Below, piece after piece: positions 3,410 through 27,262 of a stretch of DNA of 64,000 bases (within the stretch, counting starts at the first letter, position 1; every line of letters starts with the position of its first letter). The position numbers and the translations under genes are program-made. The notes beneath the pieces were generated by a model that saw nothing but the letters and a program-made list of their open reading frames with translations, ran no database searches and was not told where the DNA came from. This DNA comes from Candidatus Omnitrophota bacterium. GTDB lineage: Bacteria; Omnitrophota; Gorgyraeia; Gygaellales; Profunditerraquicolaceae. The DNA lies in NCBI GenBank assembly GCA_041650835.1, contig JBAZKL010000002.1, positions 142,477 through 206,476 on the forward strand, read 5' to 3'.

Positions 3410-4906
3410 ATGGCAGCCGGCAGGGGAATACGCTTTCGGTCCTACAGCAGGGTGATCCCGAAGTCAATGCTTGTTATTGATTCAGAACCATTGATCTCCC
3501 GCAACATTCGGCTGCTTGACGAAGCGTTCGACCTGGACATAGTATACGTTCTTATCAGCCGCAAAAACGCTGTTATCCGTGAGTGCGTCAATAAAATGAC
3601 CCGCTTAAAATGCAAACTGGAGTTTATCGAGATCCCGGAAGAAAATGTTTCTCAGGGCCTCCTCGCCGGGTACGCCGCGATCGCAGCGTACCTTGATCCC
3701 TCGGAAGTCTTTGTTTCTGTTTTGGGAGATGAGTATTATGAAGGGACCGACCACCGGGGATTTGCCGAGTTCATCCAGAGCTGCCCTGATTTCTCGGTTT
3801 GCTGCGCCGTTAAGAGATATGTTTCTCCCGATGAGTATTTTAAAAATTATTCCGTTGATTTTCTCTCGGGATCGCAGGTTAAAGAGGTCCGTGAAAAACC
3901 GAAGAAAATAACCTCCGCGTATTTCGGTTTAGGAATGATCAGTGGAAAACGGGAGCTTCCTGAATTAGCTCAAAAGAAGCTCCAGGAGGGCAGCCCGGTT
4001 AATTTCATCGAGCTTTTAAACAGTATGCCCCAACAGGGCGCGGGGTGCTTACGGGGCTTTGAATTCCGGGGCGGCTACGTCAATATCAATACCCGCAGCG
4101 ATGTTTTTAAATTAAAAAGGTTCCTGAGGGAGAGCCGCTGGAAGACATTTTCTATTGATGTGATCATCCCCGCGTGGAATGAAGCGGAGTCTATCGCTTA
4201 TGTAGTCAAGGATTTTCTCCCGGTGTGCGGGAAGGTGATCGTTATGGACAATGCTTCAACTGACGGGACTGCCGATATCGCCCGCGCGGCAGGGGCGGTC
4301 GTATATTCCGAGAAGCTTGACGGTTATGGGGACGCTATAAAAAAAGGCATGGACCGGTCGCTTGCCGATATTATGTGTATTACGGAGGCCGACGGCACAT
4401 TCCGCGGTGAAGATATCGAAAAATTGCTTATGTATCTAAAGAACGCCGACGCTGTTATCGGCACCCGCACCTATTGGCAGTATGTCGAGTATGGCGCCAA
4501 CATGCCTTTTACGCAGCGTTTCGGGAACATGATCTTCGGTTCGATCATTACGCTGCTTTGGTGGAACCGCCGTTCGAGATTCACCGATGTAGGCTGCACT
4601 TTCCGTTGTTTGTGGAAAGATTCGTATCAAAGGATCGCTCACCGCCTGGTAGGCCGGGGGCCTGAGTTTTCACCGGAAATGATCATTGAATTGCTCAATA
4701 CCTGGCAAAGGGTGATCGAAGTACCGGTGCCGTATCACGCGCGCGTAATGGGAGAATCCAAGTTCTCTCACAGCTTTTTTGCTTCAGCAAAGACCGCCTG
4801 GAAGATGCTGAGGATAATCGTCTATAAACGATGGAAGGAATGGATGTTTACCTTGTTTGCCCTGAAATCGATGTATTTTAACTCCCAGGAAAGGCCGTCC
4901 GCATGA
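3410..4906 (+). CDS. Fusion protein: sugar-phosphate nucleotidyltransferase domain plus family-2 glycosyltransferase (polyprenol-phosphate sugar synthase, DPM1/ArnC-like)
   Basis: N-terminal MAAGRGIRF...P.SML nucleotidyltransferase signature. C-terminal IDVIIPAWNEAESI...VMDNASTDGT...GYGDAIKKG...ITEADGTF GT2 (DPM1-like) motifs. The ATG at 3410 is chosen because the upstream part of the 3323 ORF overlaps the preceding gene. Confidence 0.6.
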   Translation: MAAGRGIRFRSYSRVIPKSMLVIDSEPLISRNIRLLDEAFDLDIVYVLISRKNAVIRECVNKMTRLKCKLEFIEIPEENVSQGLLAGYAAIAAYLDPSEVFVSVLGDEYYEGTDHRGFAEFIQSCPDFSVCCAVKRYVSPDEYFKNYSVDFLSGSQVKEVREKPKKITSAYFGLGMISGKRELPELAQKKLQEGSPVNFIELLNSMPQQGAGCLRGFEFRGGYVNINTRSDVFKLKRFLRESRWKTFSIDVIIPAWNEAESIAYVVKDFLPVCGKVIVMDNASTDGTADIARAAGAVVYSEKLDGYGDAIKKGMDRSLADIMCITEADGTFRGEDIEKLLMYLKNADAVIGTRTYWQYVEYGANMPFTQRFGNMIFGSIITLLWWNRRSRFTDVGCTFRCLWKDSYQRIAHRLVGRGPEFSPEMIIELLNTWQRVIEVPVPYHARVMGESKFSHSFFASAKTAWKMLRIIVYKRWKEWMFTLFALKSMYFNSQERPSA

Positions 4907-6996
4907 TCATCCTGTTTGTGGAAGCGTTAATGGTTATCTTGAGCTCGTGGCTCCTGGCGCGTGAATATTTCGGTTTGCGGCTTTTAAGCGAATCAGTTAT
5001 TGTCTGTTTTATGCTCGGATTTGCCCAGATCGTTCTGGTAGAGCTGGGATGCGGCATTACGGGAAAACTTTATGTATATACTGTTTTTACGTCGCATCTG
5101 GCGGTTTTTGCCTTCGTTGTAATGCTCTATTTGAAAAAGAAAAGAACAACATTGGAAAAACCTGATATCGAGCCATTTTTGAAAAGCAATCTGCTGCTGT
5201 ACGCTTTGAGCGCCTTCGCGGCGTTCTTCCTGGTTAAAATATCCGTTAATTTGCTTAATCCTCCGTTAAGCCCTGACAGCCTGCAATTCCATCTGGCATT
5301 TCCCGCCGCCTGGATCACTCAGGGGAATTTAAACAGCCCGTTCTTTGTTTTCGGCGCAAGCCCTATTGTGAACCCCGGGTCATTGGAAACAGGGTCTCTT
5401 TCTTATTACCCTATTAACGCGCAGTTGTTTTATACTTGGCTCATGCTGCCTCTTCGCAACGCTTTCCTGGCGGATATAGGTGAAGCTCCGTTCTATATTA
5501 TCGGCATAGTAACGATATACGCGATATTGAAGCGCTATGGCATTGATAAGACAAGGGCTTTGTTAACCGGTTTCCTCTGGGCGCTTATCCCTAATATCCT
5601 GAAACAGCTGCGTACCGGCTCATTGATAGACGTTATTTGCGCGGTTTTGCTTTTGATGGTTTTTTATACGCTATTGTTGCTTAAAAAAGAATTGAGCGTT
5701 AAGCATGCTTTGCTCTTCGGGACCGCCCTGGGGCTTTTTATCGGTACCAAGATCATTAATTTTGTCTGGCTTATCGCTTTTATCCCTTTTATGGCTTATG
5801 TTTTGTTCGCTGCCGTAGGCGAAAAAAAACTTGCGTTCGGCCGCGCAGCCGCTATCTCGGCGGCGGCAGCGGGTATGGTGATCATCCTTGGCGGGTACGT
5901 CTATATAAAGAACTTCATTTATACCGGAAATCCTTTGTTTCCCGTCTCCGTGAAGATAGCGGGGAAGGCCCTTTTTAAAGGCTTGCTTGATAACGCCGGA
6001 TATAAGGCCCAAATAGCCCGCGGCGACCAGATAAATATCATGAAAGTCATTTTCCGGGAAGGCTTGGGGCTGCAATTCTTATTATTGATCCTTCCCTGTA
6101 CTGTCGCGCCGCTTATTTTTTTACGGTACCTTAAAACGAGGCTTAAGCCGTTTACTGAATATATCCTTTTGTTCCTTACTCCGTTAATGATGATAGTTTT
6201 ATATTTGGTTTTTATAAATATATCCTGGGTGAGGTATATTTTCCCGTATTTGACGCTGGGATTAGTAGTCGCGGTCATATTCGTAACCGCTTTACCCGGC
6301 GGCCATGCGTATTTGACTTTTGTGTCGTTCGTAGCCATTACCGCGGCATTATTCGAATTAGGAAAAGGCTCTGAGCTGGTTGTGTCTGTCGCGCTGACCA
6401 TCGCGTTAACGGCCGTGTTTATTTTTTACAAAAAACAGATCATTGTATTTTATAAAACCAGGGTTTTCGGTACAGTTTTTTTTGCGGCTGCCGGTACGGG
6501 TGCGCTCATCTTGTTTTTTGGGAACGCCCAATACGACCGGAATGAATTTACCAGGTACCCGCAGACTTTCAGTAAAAAAGAGTCCTGGCAGATCGATACG
6601 GGGAGAAGCTGGAAATGGCTTAACGAGCATTCCGGTGAGGGTGCCGGTATCGCCTACGCCGGCCGTTCGGAGTTTTATCCGCTTTTCGGTGATCACTTGA
6701 AAAACAGGGTAAGCTACATTTCGGTCAATGATAAAGAGATTACCCCGTATAATGATCCTGACGGCTCCTGCCGGCAGAAAAAGGATTACGCGGCATGGCG
6801 CAGAAATCTTCTCTCAAAAAAGGTCGACTATCTGTATACGGTACTTCCCTGCCCTGAAAACAGGGAAGTTGAGGATGCCGGCGCATTTCCGATAGAGGAC
6901 CAGTGGGCTGCCGGCCATCCTGAAGGTTTTCAGCTGGTGTTCAGTAACTCTTTGACGAGGATATATAAAGTAATAATGAACGAACGGTTAAATTGA
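4903..6996 (+). CDS. Large polytopic membrane glycosyltransferase of GT-C fold (ArnT/PMT-like)
   Basis: 697 aa with at least 12 TM segments in the N-terminal 500 aa and a soluble C-terminal domain. It directly follows and overlaps a polyprenol-phosphate-sugar synthase gene, the arrangement seen for ArnC-ArnT and DPM-PMT pairs. Assignment rests on architecture and context. Confidence 0.45.
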   Translation: MIILFVEALMVILSSWLLAREYFGLRLLSESVIVCFMLGFAQIVLVELGCGITGKLYVYTVFTSHLAVFAFVVMLYLKKKRTTLEKPDIEPFLKSNLLLYALSAFAAFFLVKISVNLLNPPLSPDSLQFHLAFPAAWITQGNLNSPFFVFGASPIVNPGSLETGSLSYYPINAQLFYTWLMLPLRNAFLADIGEAPFYIIGIVTIYAILKRYGIDKTRALLTGFLWALIPNILKQLRTGSLIDVICAVLLLMVFYTLLLLKKELSVKHALLFGTALGLFIGTKIINFVWLIAFIPFMAYVLFAAVGEKKLAFGRAAAISAAAAGMVIILGGYVYIKNFIYTGNPLFPVSVKIAGKALFKGLLDNAGYKAQIARGDQINIMKVIFREGLGLQFLLLILPCTVAPLIFLRYLKTRLKPFTEYILLFLTPLMMIVLYLVFINISWVRYIFPYLTLGLVVAVIFVTALPGGHAYLTFVSFVAITAALFELGKGSELVVSVALTIALTAVFIFYKKQIIVFYKTRVFGTVFFAAAGTGALILFFGNAQYDRNEFTRYPQTFSKKESWQIDTGRSWKWLNEHSGEGAGIAYAGRSEFYPLFGDHLKNRVSYISVNDKEITPYNDPDGSCRQKKDYAAWRRNLLSKKVDYLYTVLPCPENREVEDAGAFPIEDQWAAGHPEGFQLVFSNSLTRIYKVIMNERLN

Positions 6997-19358: not shown

Positions 19359-19386
19359 TTGCAAGCCTATTAAATTTTGATATAAT
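19359..19386 (+). promoter_or_regulatory. Sigma70-like promoter candidate upstream of the GalT-like gene
   Basis: TTGCAA at 19359-19364, 16-bp spacer, TATAAT at 19381-19386. Confidence 0.4.
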
Positions 19387-19456: not shown

Positions 19457-20485
19457 ATGCCTGAATTACGAAAAGATCCTGTTATCGGACGATGGGTGAT
19501 TATCGCCACTGAACGGGCACGCAAGCCCGACCAGTTTGCCGGCGCGCAAGTCGAAAACCGGGCGGAAAAACCTTGCCCTTTTTGTGAAGGTAAAGAATCG
19601 CAGACTTCCCCGGAAATTTACTCGGTCCGCCCAAAATTATCGGCTCCCAATACTCCGGGATGGGACTTGAGGGTTGTCCCCAGTGTTACGCCCTTCCTGC
19701 GCATTGAAGGCGATCTGGACCGCCGCGGCAAAGGCCTATACGATGTGATGAATGGCGTTGGCGCTCATGAGATCATCGTAGAGACCAACGCGCATATTGC
19801 CGGCATGGCTGACTTAAGCGTCGAACAGATCACTCAAGTGATCTCCTGTTATGTCGACAGGATCGTTGATCTGGAAAAAGATAAACGCTTTAAATACGCG
19901 CTGGTCTTTAAAAATTACGGATGGATCGCCGGAGGGGGGAGCGTAAAACATTCCCGTTCGCAGTTAATAGCTACGCCCGTCAATCCTAAACGCGTCAAGG
20001 AAGAACTCGTCGGCGCGCGGCATTACTATGAACTCCATGAGCGCTGCATTTTCTGCGATTTAATTAAACAGGAGCTTGATTCAAAAGAACGCCTTATTTT
20101 GGACGTTGACGGTTTTATCGCGATCACGCCGTTTGCCTCACGCTTTCCTTTCGAAGTGTGGATACTGCCTAAAAAGCATTCTTGCGATTTTGTGAATCTC
20201 GATATGCCCAGCCGCGGCAATCTGGCGCGGATCATGAAGGCGGTACTTTCAAAATTAAAAAAAGGATTAAATGACCCGGCATTTAACTACGTTTTACATA
20301 CCGCACCTTTTAAGCGGCAGAAGGGGGCGTATTGGAGAAGTATTGAGGATGATTATCACTGGCATATTGAAATTATGCCTTCATTAACTAAGGTTGCCGG
20401 CTTTGAATGGGGAACGGGTTTTTATATCTGTCCTATGCCGCCGGAAACCGCCGCAAAGTTTTTACGGGAAGTAAATGTCAGTTAG
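19457..20485 (+). CDS. GalT-family (galactose-1-phosphate uridylyltransferase / HIT-like) paralog with substituted active-site motif (H-S-R instead of H-P-H)
   Basis: Family blocks: DPVIGRWVIIATERARKP, CPFCEG (zinc CxxC), FKNYGWIAGG and the C-terminal FASRFPFEVWILPKKH. The nucleophile motif reads KHSRSQ where the family has HPHxQ. Confidence 0.7.
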   Translation: MPELRKDPVIGRWVIIATERARKPDQFAGAQVENRAEKPCPFCEGKESQTSPEIYSVRPKLSAPNTPGWDLRVVPSVTPFLRIEGDLDRRGKGLYDVMNGVGAHEIIVETNAHIAGMADLSVEQITQVISCYVDRIVDLEKDKRFKYALVFKNYGWIAGGGSVKHSRSQLIATPVNPKRVKEELVGARHYYELHERCIFCDLIKQELDSKERLILDVDGFIAITPFASRFPFEVWILPKKHSCDFVNLDMPSRGNLARIMKAVLSKLKKGLNDPAFNYVLHTAPFKRQKGAYWRSIEDDYHWHIEIMPSLTKVAGFEWGTGFYICPMPPETAAKFLREVNVS

Positions 20486-20894
20486 TATGCGTGAGCTGAC
20501 GCTAGATATTGTTAAAGTAGTTGCTCAAAATAGTGTGATAGTAACCCGCACCTCGTAAGCATGCGCAAAATTTCCTCATTTCCAAGAGGTGCGCAAAAAT
20601 TTCTTTTAAATTTTTGCGGTGCAACGTTGTGGGAAATGAGGAAATTTTATGCGCATACTCGGTGGGGTTTGCGGCAGAAAGCCGCATACCGGCGCAATAC
20701 CGCCGCAGTAAGCGGCGTACCCAGCCACACCAATTAGGCTGGGTGCTATCTGCGCCGGGTGACGCTGAATAAAGAATTAAGGTGCATGAAACAGGGAGTA
20801 ATGACCCGCACCTCGTAAACGCACGAGAAATTTCTTCGAAATTTCTTTCGTGCACTCGGTGGGGTTTCGCTGAATAAAGCTTTAAGGTGCTCAA
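20486..20894 (+). repeat. Family-C structured repeat array. It consists of about three tandem units, each with a hairpin and each ending in the boundary motif gct.aataaag.tttaaggtgc.
   Basis: Repeated 'ccgcacctcgtaa(g/a)c...' unit starts. Hairpins gcgcaaaatttcctcatttcc/ggaaatgaggaaattttatgcgc and cacgagaaatttcttc/gaaatttctttcgtg. An extra stem-loop cluster gcggcagaaagccgc, cggcgcaataccgccg, acccagcc(N11)ggctgggt. The boundary motif occurs 3 times, and the last copy supplies the AAGGTG RBS plus ATG of the downstream gene. Confidence 0.75.
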
Positions 20895-21914
20895 ATGTCA
20901 GAATTACGCAGAGATACGATAACAGGAAGATGGGTCATTGTTAATACCGACAGCCCCTCAAAACCATCCGATTATGAGCGGGAAGTCCAGGTTTTAAAAG
21001 GCGGCGTCTGCCCTTTTTGTTACGGAAACGAGTCTCAAACTCCTCCTGAGATCGTGGCTATAAGAGAGCCCAGTACTACGCCTAATTCTCCCGGCTGGCA
21101 GGTCCGTGTTGTTTCGAATAAATTCCCCGCCCTGCAAATAGAAGGTGATTTAGACCGCAGAGGATCAGGGATCTATGATATGTCTAACGGGATAGGCGCC
21201 CATGAAGTAGTTATTGAGACCCCGTATCATACCAAGGGGTTTTCCGATCTTTTAGAACTCGAAATAGAAAATGTTATTACGATGTGCATGCAGCGAACGC
21301 TCGATCTTTTAAAGGACAAGCGCTTTAAGTACATTATGATATTTAAGAATGTGGGTGCGGCCGCGGGCGCGTCAATGGAACATCCGCATACGCAGATCGT
21401 AGCGCTTCCTATGGTGCCCAAGAATGTGAAAGAAGAGATATTAGGCGCTCATAAATATTTTGAATACCGCGACCGGTGTTTGTATTGCGATATGCTGCGC
21501 CAGGAAGCACAGGATAAAGAGCGTATTGTGTCGGAAAACAAGCTTTTTATGGCGTTCTGCCCCTTTGTTTCGCGGTTTCCTTTTGAAATATGGATCGTTC
21601 CTAAAAGGCATAACAGTTTCTTTTGCCTGATGTCTTCAGACGAAAAAACGGCACTCGCGGCAATTATGAAAGATACCGTGGGAAAGCTCAAACATGTCTT
21701 CGGGGATCTAGCCTATAATTCTATTATACATTCCTCACCCTTGAATAGCGAGACCAGTATCGATAGTTATCATTGGCATATGGAATTCATGCCGAAATTG
21801 ACCCGCGTGGCGGGTTTCGAATGGGGGACAGGTTTTTATGTGGTACCGACGCCCCCTGAAGTTGCAGCGCAATATTTAAGAGAAGAAGAACCACAGCAAA
21901 CTAAAGTTGGTTAA
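20895..21914 (+). CDS. galT: Galactose-1-phosphate uridylyltransferase-family enzyme (intact His-Pro-His active site)
   Basis: DTITGRWVIVNTD...KP, CPFCYG, FKNVGAAAGASMEHPHTQIVALP (HPH nucleophile motif), FVSRFPFEIWIVPKRH. Confidence 0.75.
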   Translation: MSELRRDTITGRWVIVNTDSPSKPSDYEREVQVLKGGVCPFCYGNESQTPPEIVAIREPSTTPNSPGWQVRVVSNKFPALQIEGDLDRRGSGIYDMSNGIGAHEVVIETPYHTKGFSDLLELEIENVITMCMQRTLDLLKDKRFKYIMIFKNVGAAAGASMEHPHTQIVALPMVPKNVKEEILGAHKYFEYRDRCLYCDMLRQEAQDKERIVSENKLFMAFCPFVSRFPFEIWIVPKRHNSFFCLMSSDEKTALAAIMKDTVGKLKHVFGDLAYNSIIHSSPLNSETSIDSYHWHMEFMPKLTRVAGFEWGTGFYVVPTPPEVAAQYLREEEPQQTKVG

Positions 21915-21929
21915 ATATTACCAGCGTAA

Positions 21930-23012
<1,083 letters not shown>

Positions 23013-23099: not shown

Positions 23100-25370
23100 A
23101 TGAATATTGTTTTAGCAGGCACGATTATACTTATAGGTTTAAGCGGGATTGTCGCCCAGATAGTTTTATTGCGCGAGTTATTGACGGCTTTTTACGGCAA
23201 TGAACTTATTATAGGCGTAATTTTCGCGAATTGGATTTTATGGGAATCTCTGGGCGTGATCTTATGCGCGCCGCTTGCCTGCCGGATGAAAAACGCCTTT
23301 AATCTATGTTGCGCTTTTTTACTGGCTTTCGCTTGCGCGTTTCCCGCTTCTGTTTTCATCACGCGCATTTTTAAAACGCTCGCCGGTATCTCCGTCGGTG
23401 AAGCGACAGGGTTTTCTGCCGTATTTCTGGCGACGCTTGCGGTTAATTCAATTACGGGTTTTCTTCACGGCGGATTATTCAGCTGCGCTTTAAAATTAAA
23501 CGCCCAATACCGCTCTCACCCGTCATTGGGCATTGCGAATGTTTACGCGTTGGAAACGGTGGGGACCCTTCTCGGAGGCATACTCTTAAGCTTCTTTTTT
23601 TTAGGACACTGGAACTCTTTTCAAACAGCTCACCTGATCGCTTTTGCTCATCTGAGCGCTGTAGTTATCATATGCGTATATTTCAACCGGGGCCGTTGCC
23701 GGCGTTATCTATTGGGCCTCACCCTGGGGTTGGGAATGCTTTTCTTGTCTGTGCCTGCCGATTTTATTCATAAACGCTCGCTCCATATCCAGTGGAAGGG
23801 CGTCGAAGTCCAGGAGTATAAGAATTCAGTTTACGGGAATATCATGGTAACCAAACGCCTCGGGCAACAAACAGTTTTTTATAATGGGATCCCCGCAATA
23901 GTAACGCCGGTCCCCGATATCGTTTCTCTTGAAGAATTCGCGCATTTCCCGCTGCTCCTGCATGAACAGCCGAAGAATATTTTGGTAATTAACGCTGCGG
24001 CGGGAGGTTTTATCCGCGAGATACTCAAACACGGTCCTGAACGGCTCGATTACCTGGAACTGGACCCGCAAGTCATTGCGATGCTAAAAAAATACCCTAC
24101 GGCTCTCACCGCGGAGGAATTATCAAACCAGCGCGTGCGTATATTCCCTGTTGACGGAAGATTTTTTATACGCACAACCACTACGAAGTATGATATTGTT
24201 TTGATCGGCGTCTCAGGGCCGGGGGATTTAAGTTCCAACCGTTTTTTTACGCTTGAATTCTTTGATCTGCTTAAGAAAACCGTAAATCCGAAAGCTATAA
24301 TCGCTTTTCGTTTACCCGGTTCACAAACATATTTCAGTAAAGAGCTCCTTGATTTGAATTCCTGCATTTATCAAGGGCTCAGAAGCGTTTTTCCCTGCGT
24401 GCGTGTTATTCCCGGTGATTTAACGCTCTATTGCGCTTCAACCGATAATACAATCCTGAGTTTGAACGCAGGGGACCTCATGCGCCGCTTTGAGGAGCGT
24501 TTTATACGCAGTCCGGTGATTTCATTGCCGTACCTAGGTTATCGCTTTAATGAAGCGTCTGAAAGAGATCTTTTGATAGCCCTGCAAAATACGGCTGCCG
24601 GAGAAAACCGGGATATGTTTCCGGTCGCCTTATATTATATGCAATCATTCTGGAATAAACAATTCTCGCCCGGACTGGTGAGGTTTTTCAGTTTATTGAG
24701 AGTATTTAATATGCGTACGGCTGCGGCGGTCATATTCTTGGGGTTAGCTTCAGCTTTATTGATCTTTCGTAAAAAACCGAAGAGCCTTCATGATTTATCC
24801 ATTCTCTATAGTATCGCTACAACAGGCTTTGCCGGAATGCTTTTAAACCTTATCCTGATCTTTACGTTTCAGGTGTATTACGGATTTATCTATCAATGGA
24901 TAGGGATATTAGTGGCAGTTTTTATGGCTGGCGCGGCAATGGGGAGTTTTGTAATGACGCGGGAGAGTGAGAGCCTTGAGAGATCACTCGGTCTTATGCG
25001 TTTTTTTGAAGGGGCTGTCCTTATGTTTTCTTTATTACTGGCATTTATTTTAAAAGAAAATTTTATGAATAGAGGGACCGCATATATGAGTTTTTTAACG
25101 CTTTTCCTGGTTTCAGGAATACTTGTCGGCGCGGAATTTCCCCTCGCCTGCCGGCTATTCCTTAAATCCTCTGAGCAGGCAAGCATGGCTGGCAGCGTGC
25201 TTTATTTTGTCGATCTGGCCGGAGGGTGGGCAGCAGGCTTACTGGGAGGTATTTTCTTTCTGCCGATTTTAGGAGTGTTTAAGAGCTGTGTGCTTTTGGC
25301 ACTCTTGAAGTTAAGCAGCCTGGTACTGCTTTTTCTATCGCGAACAAAAAATAACTATTCTACCTCGTAA
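23100..25370 (+). CDS. Fused polytopic membrane protein with a central spermidine-synthase-like (aminopropyltransferase fold) domain
   Basis: N- and C-terminal multi-TM regions. The central soluble domain has SpeE-like blocks (ILVINAAAGGFIREILKH, YLELDPQVI, DIVLIGVSGPGD) but lacks the acidic residues of the canonical GGGDGG and D-S-S-D motifs. Confidence 0.55.
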   Translation: MNIVLAGTIILIGLSGIVAQIVLLRELLTAFYGNELIIGVIFANWILWESLGVILCAPLACRMKNAFNLCCAFLLAFACAFPASVFITRIFKTLAGISVGEATGFSAVFLATLAVNSITGFLHGGLFSCALKLNAQYRSHPSLGIANVYALETVGTLLGGILLSFFFLGHWNSFQTAHLIAFAHLSAVVIICVYFNRGRCRRYLLGLTLGLGMLFLSVPADFIHKRSLHIQWKGVEVQEYKNSVYGNIMVTKRLGQQTVFYNGIPAIVTPVPDIVSLEEFAHFPLLLHEQPKNILVINAAAGGFIREILKHGPERLDYLELDPQVIAMLKKYPTALTAEELSNQRVRIFPVDGRFFIRTTTTKYDIVLIGVSGPGDLSSNRFFTLEFFDLLKKTVNPKAIIAFRLPGSQTYFSKELLDLNSCIYQGLRSVFPCVRVIPGDLTLYCASTDNTILSLNAGDLMRRFEERFIRSPVISLPYLGYRFNEASERDLLIALQNTAAGENRDMFPVALYYMQSFWNKQFSPGLVRFFSLLRVFNMRTAAAVIFLGLASALLIFRKKPKSLHDLSILYSIATTGFAGMLLNLILIFTFQVYYGFIYQWIGILVAVFMAGAAMGSFVMTRESESLERSLGLMRFFEGAVLMFSLLLAFILKENFMNRGTAYMSFLTLFLVSGILVGAEFPLACRLFLKSSEQASMAGSVLYFVDLAGGWAAGLLGGIFFLPILGVFKSCVLLALLKLSSLVLLFLSRTKNNYSTS

Positions 25371-25628
25371 GCATACGCAAAACTTCGGGATGCTTCTTTT
25401 ATGCAAAAGTGCCTGCTCACCCTCCTGCGCACTTTAAATTTACTATTAAATGCTGACGGCGTGCTTCGGAGGACTGCGCTCAATAAAGCTTTGAGGTGGA
25501 ACTACTCCGACTCATAAGAAGCGTGCCCACCCAAACAGCTAAACACTTCGGAAATTCTTCCGCTTCGCTCCATAATTTCCTCGTAGCTGTTTGAGTTTCG
25601 CTAGATAAAGCTTTAAGGTGCTCAAAAG
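25360..25628 (+). repeat. Family-C structured repeat (two units), beginning over the stop codon of the upstream gene
   Basis: ctacctcgtaagcatacgcaaaa...(hairpins)...gcgctcaataaagctttgaggtgg, then a second unit ending gctagataaagctttaaggtgctcaaaag. Shares unit-start and unit-end motifs with 20486-20894. Confidence 0.7.
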
Positions 25629-25722
25629 TCAATAAAAAGGGGAAAGAGCAGCTTTACATTCCTTAACAATTTTAGTAAAGTAATTAAACTAGAATAACGG
25701 ACAAAAAAAGGAGCGTTCAGGT

Positions 25723-26964
25723 ATGCAGCCGTATCCTGCGCTATCAGAAATCCAAGATTCTGAAAAAGATCCTTTTAAAGCATTTTTAAGCGACAGCCTG
25801 GAGAGTTGCTTAAAAACCGTTAATGCTCAATCAGGATCAATATTTTTGATCGATAAAAAGAACAAGGACAGGCTTTTTCTCGAAGTAGCCCGTAATAGAG
25901 AAGGCAAAATATTTGATAACGTAAAACTTCGCCTGGGTGAGCGTATAGTTGGTAAAGTCGCCCGGGACCGTAAGCCTCTTTTTATATCCGACCTTGACCG
26001 GGAGAAAGAATTTGAATCAATGCCCCGGTACCTGCATTACACCTCGAAATCACTCCTATCAGTTCCCCTGGAACACGCGCATGAGTTGATCGGCGTCGTT
26101 AATATTACCGATAAAATGAGCGGAGCGGCTTTTAGTCATACTGATTTTTCTAAGGTTTTAAGTATTGCGCGCGATCTAGGCGTTGCTACGGACATGCTTA
26201 AAGGATATTTGGAGCGCCTCAGGAAAGTGAATTTAAGCCTTTTGATGCAGCTTAATGATCTTAAAGGTGCCGTAGCGCGTGCAAATAAATACTGTACTCT
26301 GGGAAAGTTTTCGGGAGATATCCTGCATGCCATAAACGGCCCTCTCGACGGGATCATTCGCTACATTAACTTAGCGTACCACCAGTTAGAAAATGAGACT
26401 TCGGGAAAACGCTATTTAAAGAATGCTGCCGAAGGTTTGTCGAGGCTTACGAGAGTGGTAAATTCCATCGCAACCTTGAAACGGATGATCCCTGATGAAC
26501 CAACTACTGTTGATGTTACCCGGGAACTTAATAATTGCATCACTGCATTTAATAATGATTTTAAGCTAAGGCATATAAACTTTCAGGAATTCTTACTGCC
26601 CTGCGCATTACTGGTGCCGGATTTCGGGCTGAAACTCGTTTTTACCGGTATTATGCAGAATGCCGCCGAAGCGATGAAACAAGGGGGGATGGTAAATATT
26701 TATTCGCAAGTTCAAAGCGGATGCCTTGAGATCAGATTCACTGACTCCGGATGCGGCATCCCTGAAAGCCTGTTAAAAAAGGTCTTTGAGCCATTTTTTA
26801 CGACTAAAGCCGATGATGGCGCGTTGGGGATGGGTTTAACGGTCGCGCATGAAATAATACAAAAATATAAAGGTTCCATTTTCATTGAAAACATTCCCGC
26901 AGGAGGCACCTCTGTTACGGTATCGGTGCCCGTCGCGGCAAATTCTCTCCACGATAATGAGTAA
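25723..26964 (+). CDS. GAF-domain sensor histidine kinase (orphan; no response regulator adjacent)
   Basis: N-terminal GAF-like region. Candidate H-box near ILHAINGPLDGI. C-terminal HATPase_c blocks (N, G1 DSGCGIP, G2 GLGMGLTVAHEI). Confidence 0.6.
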   Translation: MQPYPALSEIQDSEKDPFKAFLSDSLESCLKTVNAQSGSIFLIDKKNKDRLFLEVARNREGKIFDNVKLRLGERIVGKVARDRKPLFISDLDREKEFESMPRYLHYTSKSLLSVPLEHAHELIGVVNITDKMSGAAFSHTDFSKVLSIARDLGVATDMLKGYLERLRKVNLSLLMQLNDLKGAVARANKYCTLGKFSGDILHAINGPLDGIIRYINLAYHQLENETSGKRYLKNAAEGLSRLTRVVNSIATLKRMIPDEPTTVDVTRELNNCITAFNNDFKLRHINFQEFLLPCALLVPDFGLKLVFTGIMQNAAEAMKQGGMVNIYSQVQSGCLEIRFTDSGCGIPESLLKKVFEPFFTTKADDGALGMGLTVAHEIIQKYKGSIFIENIPAGGTSVTVSVPVAANSLHDNE

Positions 26965-27109: not shown

Positions 27110-27262
27110 GGCGGTTGCCGTTTAAGTCATCCTACCCGAATAATGATAACACCCCGCGCTAATCGCACCCAGCCTCATTGGAATGGCTGGGTATGCCGCT
27201 TTTCTGCGGCAGTATTGCGCGGGGTGTGCTGCTTTCTGCAGCACCGATTACCATTAATATAT
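27110..27262 (-). repeat. Family-C structured element in inverted orientation
   Basis: The reverse complement of 27150-27250 aligns base-by-base with 20676-20770 (tgcNgcagaaagcNgc...gcgcaatac.gccgcag.aaagcggc.tacccagcc...ggctgggtgc). Differences fall as compensatory pairs in stems (gcggc/gccgc versus gctgc/gcagc). Confidence 0.7.

Follow-up and report, generated by a model that had tools for sequence, protein, structure and literature searches.

The window analysed here, a 64-kb stretch (64,000 nucleotides) of a Candidatus Omnitrophota genome, carries between fmt and the glyceraldehyde-3-phosphate dehydrogenase gene (gap) two tandem genes, P1 and P2, whose products are related to galactose-1-phosphate uridylyltransferase (GalT) and to the ADP-glucose phosphorylase At5g18200 of the histidine triad (HIT) superfamily (Table 1). 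P2 has a complete set of catalytic residues on its own chain and P1 has lost the nucleophilic histidine. The pattern of residues that each protein has kept and lost suggests that the two probably work together as one enzyme. P1 is 100% identical to a protein from a Candidatus Omnitrophota metagenome-assembled genome, and the two paralogues are 48% identical to each other over 338 aa (BLASTP, E = 5e-126). A check of the open reading frames (ORFs) confirmed the positions and the lengths of 342 and 339 aa given in an earlier sequence-only reading of this DNA, which had put the identity slightly too low, at about 45%.

Table 1. Features at the P1–P2 locus (positions in the window; all on the forward strand).
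Feature	Position	Strand	Description
Promoter-like site TTGCAA, 16 nt, TG-TATAAT	19359..19386	+	in the 98-nt fmt–P1 gap; from a consensus scan
P1	19457..20485	+	342-aa ORF; GalT-like/At5g18200-like HIT protein without nucleophile His; proposed non-catalytic subunit
P1 R-A-R-K-P	19514..19528	+	equivalent of E. coli GalT Arg28...Arg31-Pro32; trans phosphate-binding motif, retained
P1 K-H-S-R-S-Q	19946..19963	+	from translation; Zn-ligand His165 kept, Arg167 at the nucleophile position, Gln169 kept
P1 T-K-V-A-G-F-E-W-G-T-G	20387..20419	+	from translation; sugar-binding loop, in class-I GalTs donated to the active site of the partner
Structured spacer, 409 nt	20486..20894	+	two copies of a hairpin repeat; 3' end provides the AAGGTG ribosome-binding site of P2
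P2	20895..21914	+	339-aa ORF; GalT-like/At5g18200-like HIT protein with complete cis active site; proposed catalytic subunit
P2 T-D-S-P-S-K-P	20946..20966	+	from translation; degenerate counterpart of the Arg28/Arg31 motif
P2 E-H-P-H-T-Q	21378..21395	+	from translation; nucleophile His165; His in 61/61 orthologues
GAPDH	21945..23012	+	Pfam Gp_dh_N/C; conserved neighbour 3' of P2; first gene of the gap-pgk-tpi set

The family assignment is firm for both genes, as the sequence-only reading had proposed. Both proteins exceed the Pfam cut-offs for PF01087 (22.1) and PF02744 (29.2), P1 with scores of 33.7 and 46.4 and P2 with 50.9 and 56.3. Their best match in the PDB is 1Z84, the structure of At5g18200 (P1 residues 2-341, 234 bits, E = 2.6e-68; P2 residues 3-330, 223 bits, E = 4.7e-65), and E. 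coli GalT matches them at only 74-85 bits. Within the family they fall on different sides of the galT_1 model TIGR00209 (cut-off 102.1), which P2 passes with 126.8 and P1 misses with 98.3; both remain below the cut-off of 448 for PRK11720, with scores of 141 and 117. By the H-x-H-x-Q motif P2 can be counted as an enzyme of the class-I GalT group, branch III of the HIT superfamily, and P1 as a homologue that is not a catalytic member.

Both proteins carry the zinc-binding CxxC motif (CPFCEG in P1, CPFCYG in P2) and the C-terminal block (RFPFEVWILPKKH and RFPFEIWIVPKRH). The FKN.G..AGG block that the sequence-only reading attributed to the pair fits P1 exactly (FKNYGWIAGG) and departs from the pattern in P2, which ends in AGA (FKNVGAAAGA). 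The two proteins differ at the nucleophile. In the HMMER alignment Arg167 of P1 stands opposite the nucleophile His186 of 1Z84, within the S-H-S-H-S-Q motif of At5g18200, and 2H39, the structure with the H186G mutation, falls into that column too; MAFFT places Arg167 opposite His166 of E. coli GalT (reference sequence 100% identical to 1HXQ_A). Three independent alignments agree on this column and none brings a histidine of P1 into it, which upholds the earlier claim that P1 lacks the nucleophile. The serine in place of proline between the two positions, also noted at the time, is normal variation of the clade: At5g18200 has H-S-H, and P2 orthologues have P, G, N, S, D or A.

The replacement is a property of the whole group. 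All 120 nearest homologues of P1 (75-84% identical) have H-[STA]-[RK]-S-Q, and across the 61 genomes with complete copies of both genes the nucleophile position of P1 is Arg in 59 and Lys in 2. Judged from these sequences, loss of the histidine is neither a chance event nor a sequencing error. The rest of the fold is preserved. The equivalents of Cys52, Cys55, His115 and His164, which form the structural zinc site of a CxxC and two His, one being the first of HxH, are invariant in all 61 genomes for P1 as well as for P2, and P1 retains all eight metal ligands together with the equivalents of Asn153, Gly159 and Gln168. P1 also has conserved features of its own: GYW is inserted at 291-293, and the glycine-rich loop is longer by one residue.

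A scan of species-representative genomes yielded 80 loci, nearly all labelled Omnitrophota, and the gene order PriA-Fmt-P1-P2-GAPDH is kept in all of them wherever the contig reaches far enough. P1 is an intact ORF in every one. In the 44 genomes that have complete copies of all four genes, pairwise identity averages 71% for P1, 69% for GAPDH, 66% for P2 and 50% for Fmt. Conservation of at least 90% is reached at 179 positions of P1, compared with 137 in P2. Because P1 exceeds P2 in both measures, it appears from these alignments to be under stronger constraint than its catalytic-looking neighbour. The two genes overlap, for example by TAATG stop/start overlaps, or lie no more than 5 nt apart in 48 of 64 genomes, which suggests that their translation is coupled. 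Their distance matrices are closely correlated (r = 0.90), and remain so when GAPDH and Fmt are controlled for (partial r = 0.81 in the same 44 genomes); the other gene pairs at the locus give partial r values of -0.08 to 0.42. P1 combines loss of catalytic residues, purifying selection and constant co-occurrence with an active paralogue, a combination expected of a pseudoenzyme partner.

Class-I GalTs and At5g18200 are homodimers with inter-subunit active sites, in which the neighbouring chain completes the pocket (bioRxiv 10.64898/2026.09.13.751320). In human GALT, the hexose-1-phosphate site is formed by Lys334-Gln346 from one chain and by Gln188 together with Asn173 of the second chain, and Arg48, the counterpart of E. 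coli Arg28, is contributed to the active site by the opposite chain (PMC5081055). UDP-glucose is contacted in the E. coli enzyme by Arg28, Arg31, Gly159 and Ser161 (PMC5081055), of which Ser161 recognises the attacked alpha-phosphate (bioRxiv 10.64898/2026.09.13.751320); F312', V314', Y316' and E317' are supplied by the neighbouring subunit (PMC5081055; bioRxiv 10.64898/2026.09.13.751320). Each site of the class-I GalT type would in this way consist of a cis set from one chain (the HxHxQ nucleophile, the nucleoside-binding Asn77 and Phe79, and Ser161 at the alpha-phosphate) and a trans set from the other (the Arg28/Arg31 motif at the N-terminal end and the G-[FY]-E sugar loop at the C-terminal end).

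Mapped onto E. coli GalT numbering in the alignment of the 61 paired genomes, the two sets are distributed reciprocally between the paralogues. P2 keeps the cis residues, with Asn at position 77 and Phe or Tyr at position 79 in all 61 genomes and Ser (57) or Thr (4) at position 161, besides its invariant nucleophile. P1 has Ser in place of Asn77 in 58 genomes, Ala, Ser or Thr in place of Phe79, and Gly in place of Ser161 in 46. At the trans positions the situation is reversed. The Arg28 equivalent is Arg in all 61 P1 proteins and in only 3 P2 proteins (His in 32, Asn in 10, Asp in 6, Ser in 3), and the Arg31 equivalent is Arg (57) or Lys (4) in P1, compared with Lys in 40 P2 proteins and Ala, Gly, Ser or Thr in the rest. 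Loss of the Arg28 equivalent from P2 is unusual, because it is Arg in 112 of 134 H-x-H representatives from the family at large. The third trans element, the G-F-E sugar loop, reads AGFEWGTGFY and is at least 90% conserved in both the P1 and P2 family consensus; it is given here by motif, as the MAFFT mapping of E. coli residues 296-323 is unreliable. On this residue pattern, P1 has lost the cis set and kept the trans set, whereas P2 has kept the cis set and lost the trans Arg motif. Since each paralogue keeps what the other lacks, only one composite site, P2 cis with P1 trans, would be complete.

Fused genes are classically taken as a sign that their products associate physically, and the pair occurs naturally in fused form. 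The top hit of a full HMMER search of 1.84 billion representatives, P0121 (599 aa, locus L081), is a P1~P2 fusion in which a short Ser/Lys linker joins the two modules, with GAPDH-PGK-TIM-SecG downstream. Its dead N-terminal module retains ERAKRP, the zinc site of the C-terminal half and LTRVAGFEWGTG, and is devoid of CxxC and HxH. The C-terminal module has EHPHTQ and starts at CPFC, so that the whole N-terminal Arg segment is absent. Read from its sequence, this architecture is what a single composite site predicts. Another protein, P0163, is a fusion of two H-x-H GalT-like modules, and covalent dimers of the GalT-like fold must therefore be viable.

More divergent P1-type proteins carry the asymmetry further. 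A neighbour-joining tree of 136 representatives was star-like and was used only to delimit the P1-type clade, whose divergent members have Arg (P0125, P0130) or Ser (P0126, P0154) at the nucleophile position and lie in Fmt-P1type-P2type order at three of four loci. The P1-type proteins of L082, L090, L091 and L092 always keep RxxRP and AGFE, the latter a core that the dead module of the fusion retains as well, and their cis sites have decayed to differing degrees, in L091 as far as loss of the CxxC and of the zinc-ligand His. Their P2-type partners keep HxHxQ and N-K-F, with the sugar loop degraded in two of them (SGIE in L082, SEFD in L091).

The L091 pair (positions 4001-6020 of that locus) is peculiar in another respect, in that both its proteins are without the cysteines of both CxxC zinc sites (ISFTE, SPFIYE; RCIFSD, RSVYGD). 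The P2-type member keeps E-H-A-H-S-Q despite this loss, and the pair may be a zinc-independent version of the fold.

We therefore regard it as probable that P1 and P2 are obligate partners in a heterodimeric nucleotidyltransferase of the HIT type that has a single, composite active site. The system would have arisen by tandem duplication of a homodimeric enzyme like At5g18200. P2 would have kept the cis set while its trans Arg motif decayed; P1 would have kept the trans set and undergone the changes His to Arg/Lys, Asn to Ser, Phe to Ala/Ser/Thr and Ser to Gly. The single catalytic site would join P2 cis to P1 trans residues, which would leave P1 non-catalytic yet indispensable. A P1:P1 homodimer would be disfavoured, as it would set Arg167 against the invariant Arg20 of the other P1 chain, a position at which P2 offers His, Asn, Asp or Ser instead. 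For the human variant Q188R a clash with the opposite chain's Arg48 is presumed (PMC5081055), and by analogy with that clash we infer negative design against P1:P1 pairing. Of the functions that the sequence-only reading had offered for P1, a pseudoenzyme partner in a shared-site dimer is thus the one favoured by the reciprocal cis/trans loss, the coupled adjacency in most genomes, the fusion and the correlated evolution. These data point to a non-catalytic, structurally required partner and lend no support of their own to the 'regulatory' role attached to it.

Several observations weigh against obligate heterodimerisation, the case for which is drawn from sequence. In the lineage of the window the sugar loop of P2, AGFEWGTGFY, is fully intact, and P2 homodimers may be active there. 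About 14 of 126 stand-alone H-x-H representatives are also without the Arg28 equivalent, among them P0122, which has no paralogue nearby; loss of this Arg is therefore no proof in itself of dependence on a partner. A candidate rule that an Arg28-less H-x-H protein always stands beside a dead paralogue is broken by the same protein. The chain assignment is explicit in the literature for Arg28 and follows for Arg31 from adjacency. Paralogues under similar constraints can inflate a mirror-tree correlation, and one P1-type protein, P0126 (L090), has no adjacent P2. Finally, the former active-site loop of P1, Arg167 included, shows more conservation than a purely structural role would need, so the former pocket of P1 may do something.

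One idea of what it does, which we find unlikely but worth stating, is that in the lineage of the window the P1 pocket was converted to an allosteric sensor or to the site of a new, His-independent chemistry. The pocket keeps Asn153, Gly159, the zinc-ligand His and Gln169, has gained a near-invariant Arg or Lys at the nucleophile position, still receives the intact sugar loop of P2 and has lost the nucleoside-binding residues; because of this, its profile would suit binding of a sugar phosphate or phosphate but not of a nucleotide. As a sensor it might respond to a ligand such as glucose-1-phosphate, a glycolytic intermediate or inorganic phosphate, and would control the single catalytic site of a nucleoside diphosphate (NDP)-glucose phosphorylase heading the gap operon. 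Such control, if true, would be a regulatory design new to HIT enzymes.

It is decidedly unlikely that the two proteins are independent, P2 being an ordinary homodimeric GalT or NDP-glucose phosphorylase and P1 a separate non-enzymatic ligand-binding or regulatory protein, with adjacency left over only from the ancestral tandem duplication and operon structure. Such a P2 would account for its full cis set, its intact sugar loop and its score above the TIGR00209 cut-off, and the family does contain stand-alone H-x-H proteins without the Arg28 equivalent as well as stand-alone His-less proteins without an adjacent partner (P0129, P0143, P0131). The latter, however, have lost the trans Arg pair, unlike P1, and independence leaves unexplained why P1 selectively retains the trans residues and P2 loses them. 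The fusion, the stop/start overlaps and the partial correlation of 0.81 point instead to a physical complex.

A still poorer prospect, in our estimate, is that P1 is an enzyme with changed chemistry, acting as a homodimer or within a heterodimer, as the sequence-only reading had also suggested. The Arg or Lys could stabilise a single displacement in which phosphate or a sugar phosphate attacks a nucleotide sugar directly; alternatively, the substrate could be a non-nucleotide phosphoester. The remodelled pocket is indeed strongly conserved (FKNyGw.aGgg...H.RSQlIATPVnPKRVKEEL, mostly at least 90%, with Arg or Lys in 61/61), and the retained metal ligands, Asn153, Gly159 and Gln168, the GYW insertion and the extra glycine-rich-loop residue would all suit an enzyme. 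On the other side, the nucleoside holders Asn77 and Phe79 and the phosphate-recognising Ser161 are replaced in P1 by small residues, and P2 no longer has the trans Arg that would serve a P1 site. In deeper lineages, P1-type proteins have Ser and a shortened or degenerate loop, and the dead module of the fusion is without the site, yet these genes persist beside an H-x-H partner.

That P1 is a pseudogene, a duplicate inactivated not long ago, or that the alignment misleads, for which the missing histidine is the only argument, has practically no chance of being right and can be taken as refuted, as P1 is intact and highly conserved in all 80 related genomes, is the most conserved gene of the locus, has H-x-[RK] in 120/120 nearest homologues and is placed in the same column by three independent alignments.

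Beyond the Omnitrophota pair, the nucleophilic histidine is absent (replaced by Val, Ile, Tyr, Cys, Leu or Arg) from about one tenth of the 150 nearest family representatives: P0129 (L083), P0143 (L085), P0131 (L087), P0144 (L088), P0158, P0188, P0199, P0206, P0248, P0255 and P0258. By this sequence survey the nucleophile has been lost repeatedly in this GalT-like family. The genes of stand-alone His-less relatives lie in contexts such as beside type III pantothenate kinase and Usp, or beside acetate kinase. A pairing rule for His-less proteins outside the Omnitrophota clade was rejected, as P0129, P0143, P0131 and P0144 are unpaired. These four stand alone and have lost the trans Arg pair, and are therefore a separate phenomenon from the P1–P2 system.

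As for the reaction, the match to 1Z84, the fusions of relatives and the position before gap make transfer from an NDP-glucose the favoured option. Near H-x-H relatives are fused to GT5 glycogen/starch synthase (P0165) and to GH57 (P0180, P0223), which suggests that bacterial At5g18200-like enzymes belong to alpha-glucan metabolism. Phosphorolysis of ADP-glucose by the At5g18200 type goes through a His186-AMP intermediate, the His for which is present in P2 and absent from P1. The P1-P2 pair precedes gap at all loci with sufficient contig, and precedes gap-pgk-tpi in L081. From these sequence relationships, the reaction is most likely NDP-glucose + phosphate (or hexose-1-phosphate) <-> NDP + glucose-1-phosphate, which would link alpha-glucan or nucleotide-sugar pools to glycolysis. 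Pfam annotation found no glycogen, galK, galE or Leloir-pathway genes in the 64-kb window, and the absence of glycogen genes counts against this assignment.

Among known systems, At5g18200 (1Z84, 2H39) is the closest. Its two zinc sites (CxxC + His + His, twice), HxHxQ region, RAKRP and GGFE loop can all be aligned with the pair, and its H-S-H shares the first His-Ser with P1. It is nonetheless a homodimer with two equivalent sites, unlike the diverged paralogues P1 and P2, each with half of the shared-site residues. Class-I GalT (E. coli 1HXP/1HXQ, human 5IN3) likewise has the same fold, the same ping-pong nucleophile position and an active site split between chains, but it too is a homodimer, the pair is much more distant from it (74-85 compared with 223-234 bits), and the window is without galK and galE. 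Every characterised class-I GalT-type enzyme known to us, human GALT and plant ADP-glucose phosphorylase among them, is described as a homodimer whose two shared sites are equivalent.

A dead paralogue paired with a live one has a precedent within the HIT superfamily in avian Asw/Wpkci-8 (HINTW), a paralogue without the HIT motif that heterodimerises with active Hint (PMC1386693, citing Pace & Brenner 2003, PMC153458). Asw, however, belongs to the eukaryotic Hint branch and is proposed to be a dominant suppressor of Hint, whereas P1 is predicted to be required for activity through its trans residues. In the GlgC/GlgD enzyme of Bacillota and in the small and large subunits of plant ADP-glucose pyrophosphorylase, a catalytic subunit assembles with a paralogous subunit of low or no activity into a hetero-oligomer for making or handling ADP-glucose. 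Their fold (nucleotidyltransferase/left-handed beta-helix) and their pyrophosphorylase chemistry differ from those of P1-P2. The GalT monomer itself consists of fused HIT-like half-domains, only one of which has the active motif. Duplication followed by loss of one site also describes this internal architecture; a P1:P2 dimer would be left with one live site among four HIT-like units. The internal duplication is ancient and lies within one chain, whereas the loss in P1 and P2 is between chains, phylum-specific and visible as a graded series. HIT1 and HIT2 subdomains are described in bioRxiv 10.64898/2026.09.13.751320.

The literature searched gave no report of a heteromeric GalT or At5g18200-type enzyme or of the His-less P1 clade, and neither 'ADP-glucose phosphorylase' nor 'histidine triad' occurs in a 2024 review of prokaryotic alpha-glucan enzymes. 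The dead-paralogue partner is a known theme, and its heteromeric GalT-type version appears to be new in that literature. If the proposal is correct, a phylum-wide heterodimer in which a single site is live would give this branch of the HIT superfamily a new quaternary arrangement and would be a natural example of a shared-site homodimer turning into an obligate heterodimer by complementary loss after duplication, with stages surviving in related genomes as intact-looking sites, decayed sites and a fused gene. The position before gap(-pgk-tpi) and the glycogen-synthase and GH57 fusions of relatives point to an uncharacterised nucleotide-glucose or alpha-glucan link to glycolysis in Omnitrophota. 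There is also a practical consequence. Many P1 orthologues are named 'galactose-1-phosphate uridylyltransferase' or 'UDPglucose--hexose-1-phosphate uridylyltransferase' in databases. Because the nucleophile is absent, which by sequence makes the canonical mechanism impossible for P1, these names amount to systematic mis-annotation.

The spacer between the two genes folds with -165 kcal/mol (z = -8.6 compared with shuffled sequence). The sequence-only reading had proposed that the pair is probably co-regulated through this structured array (its family C), a suggestion that does not hold up for the system as a whole: the 409-nt spacer is common only to the closest relative, L001 (94% identical), most genomes have no spacer at all, with 48 of 64 overlapping or no more than 5 nt apart, and L003 carries an unrelated insert at the same position. 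To judge from these comparisons, the spacer is a lineage-specific repeat insertion outside the conserved P1–P2 system. A search of the whole window with Rfam at gathering thresholds gave no match, and the spacer is therefore not a known riboswitch or leader; scanning for terminators likewise turned up no convincing intrinsic one between P1 and P2. The repeat family is laid out as GTAACCCGCACCTCGTAA, a variable hairpin, ACTCGGTGGGGTTT and then GCTGAATAAAGnnTTAAGGTGC, with two copies between P1 and P2, and its 3' end places the AAGGTG ribosome-binding site immediately 5' of a start codon. Fragments occur in intergenic regions upstream of other genes. Besides the spacer, members of the family lie at 25362-25382, 25595-25625 and 27165-27220 (-) in the window and at 5024-5300 and 7596-7637 in L001. 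Upstream of P1, the promoter-like site has 10/12 consensus matches and an extended -10, and seven such sites were found in the region where 4.7 are expected, so that the evidence for a promoter there is weak.

Downstream, the gap-pgk-tpi set is split in the window (23100-26964) by two genes, one for a multi-pass membrane protein of 756 aa that has a spermidine/spermine-synthase domain and one for a GAF + HATPase_c protein; L081 has gap, pgk, tpi and secG in an unbroken row. The window GAPDH is 94% identical to that of L001 and at most 57% identical to the GAPDH that 42 other Omnitrophota genomes have at this place; those 42 are all linked with one another at >62% identity. On this sequence evidence it looks like an in-place replacement by a divergent gap type in the lineage of the window. 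The 50 non-overlapping ORFs of 150 aa or more in the window are all on the forward strand, and the cumulative GC skew climbs monotonically throughout. In order, the window contains lipopolysaccharide/polysaccharide genes, priA, fmt, the P1-P2 pair, glycolysis genes and an oligopeptide ABC transporter, and in its later part genes for arginine and lysine biosynthesis, uvrA and a TPR protein.

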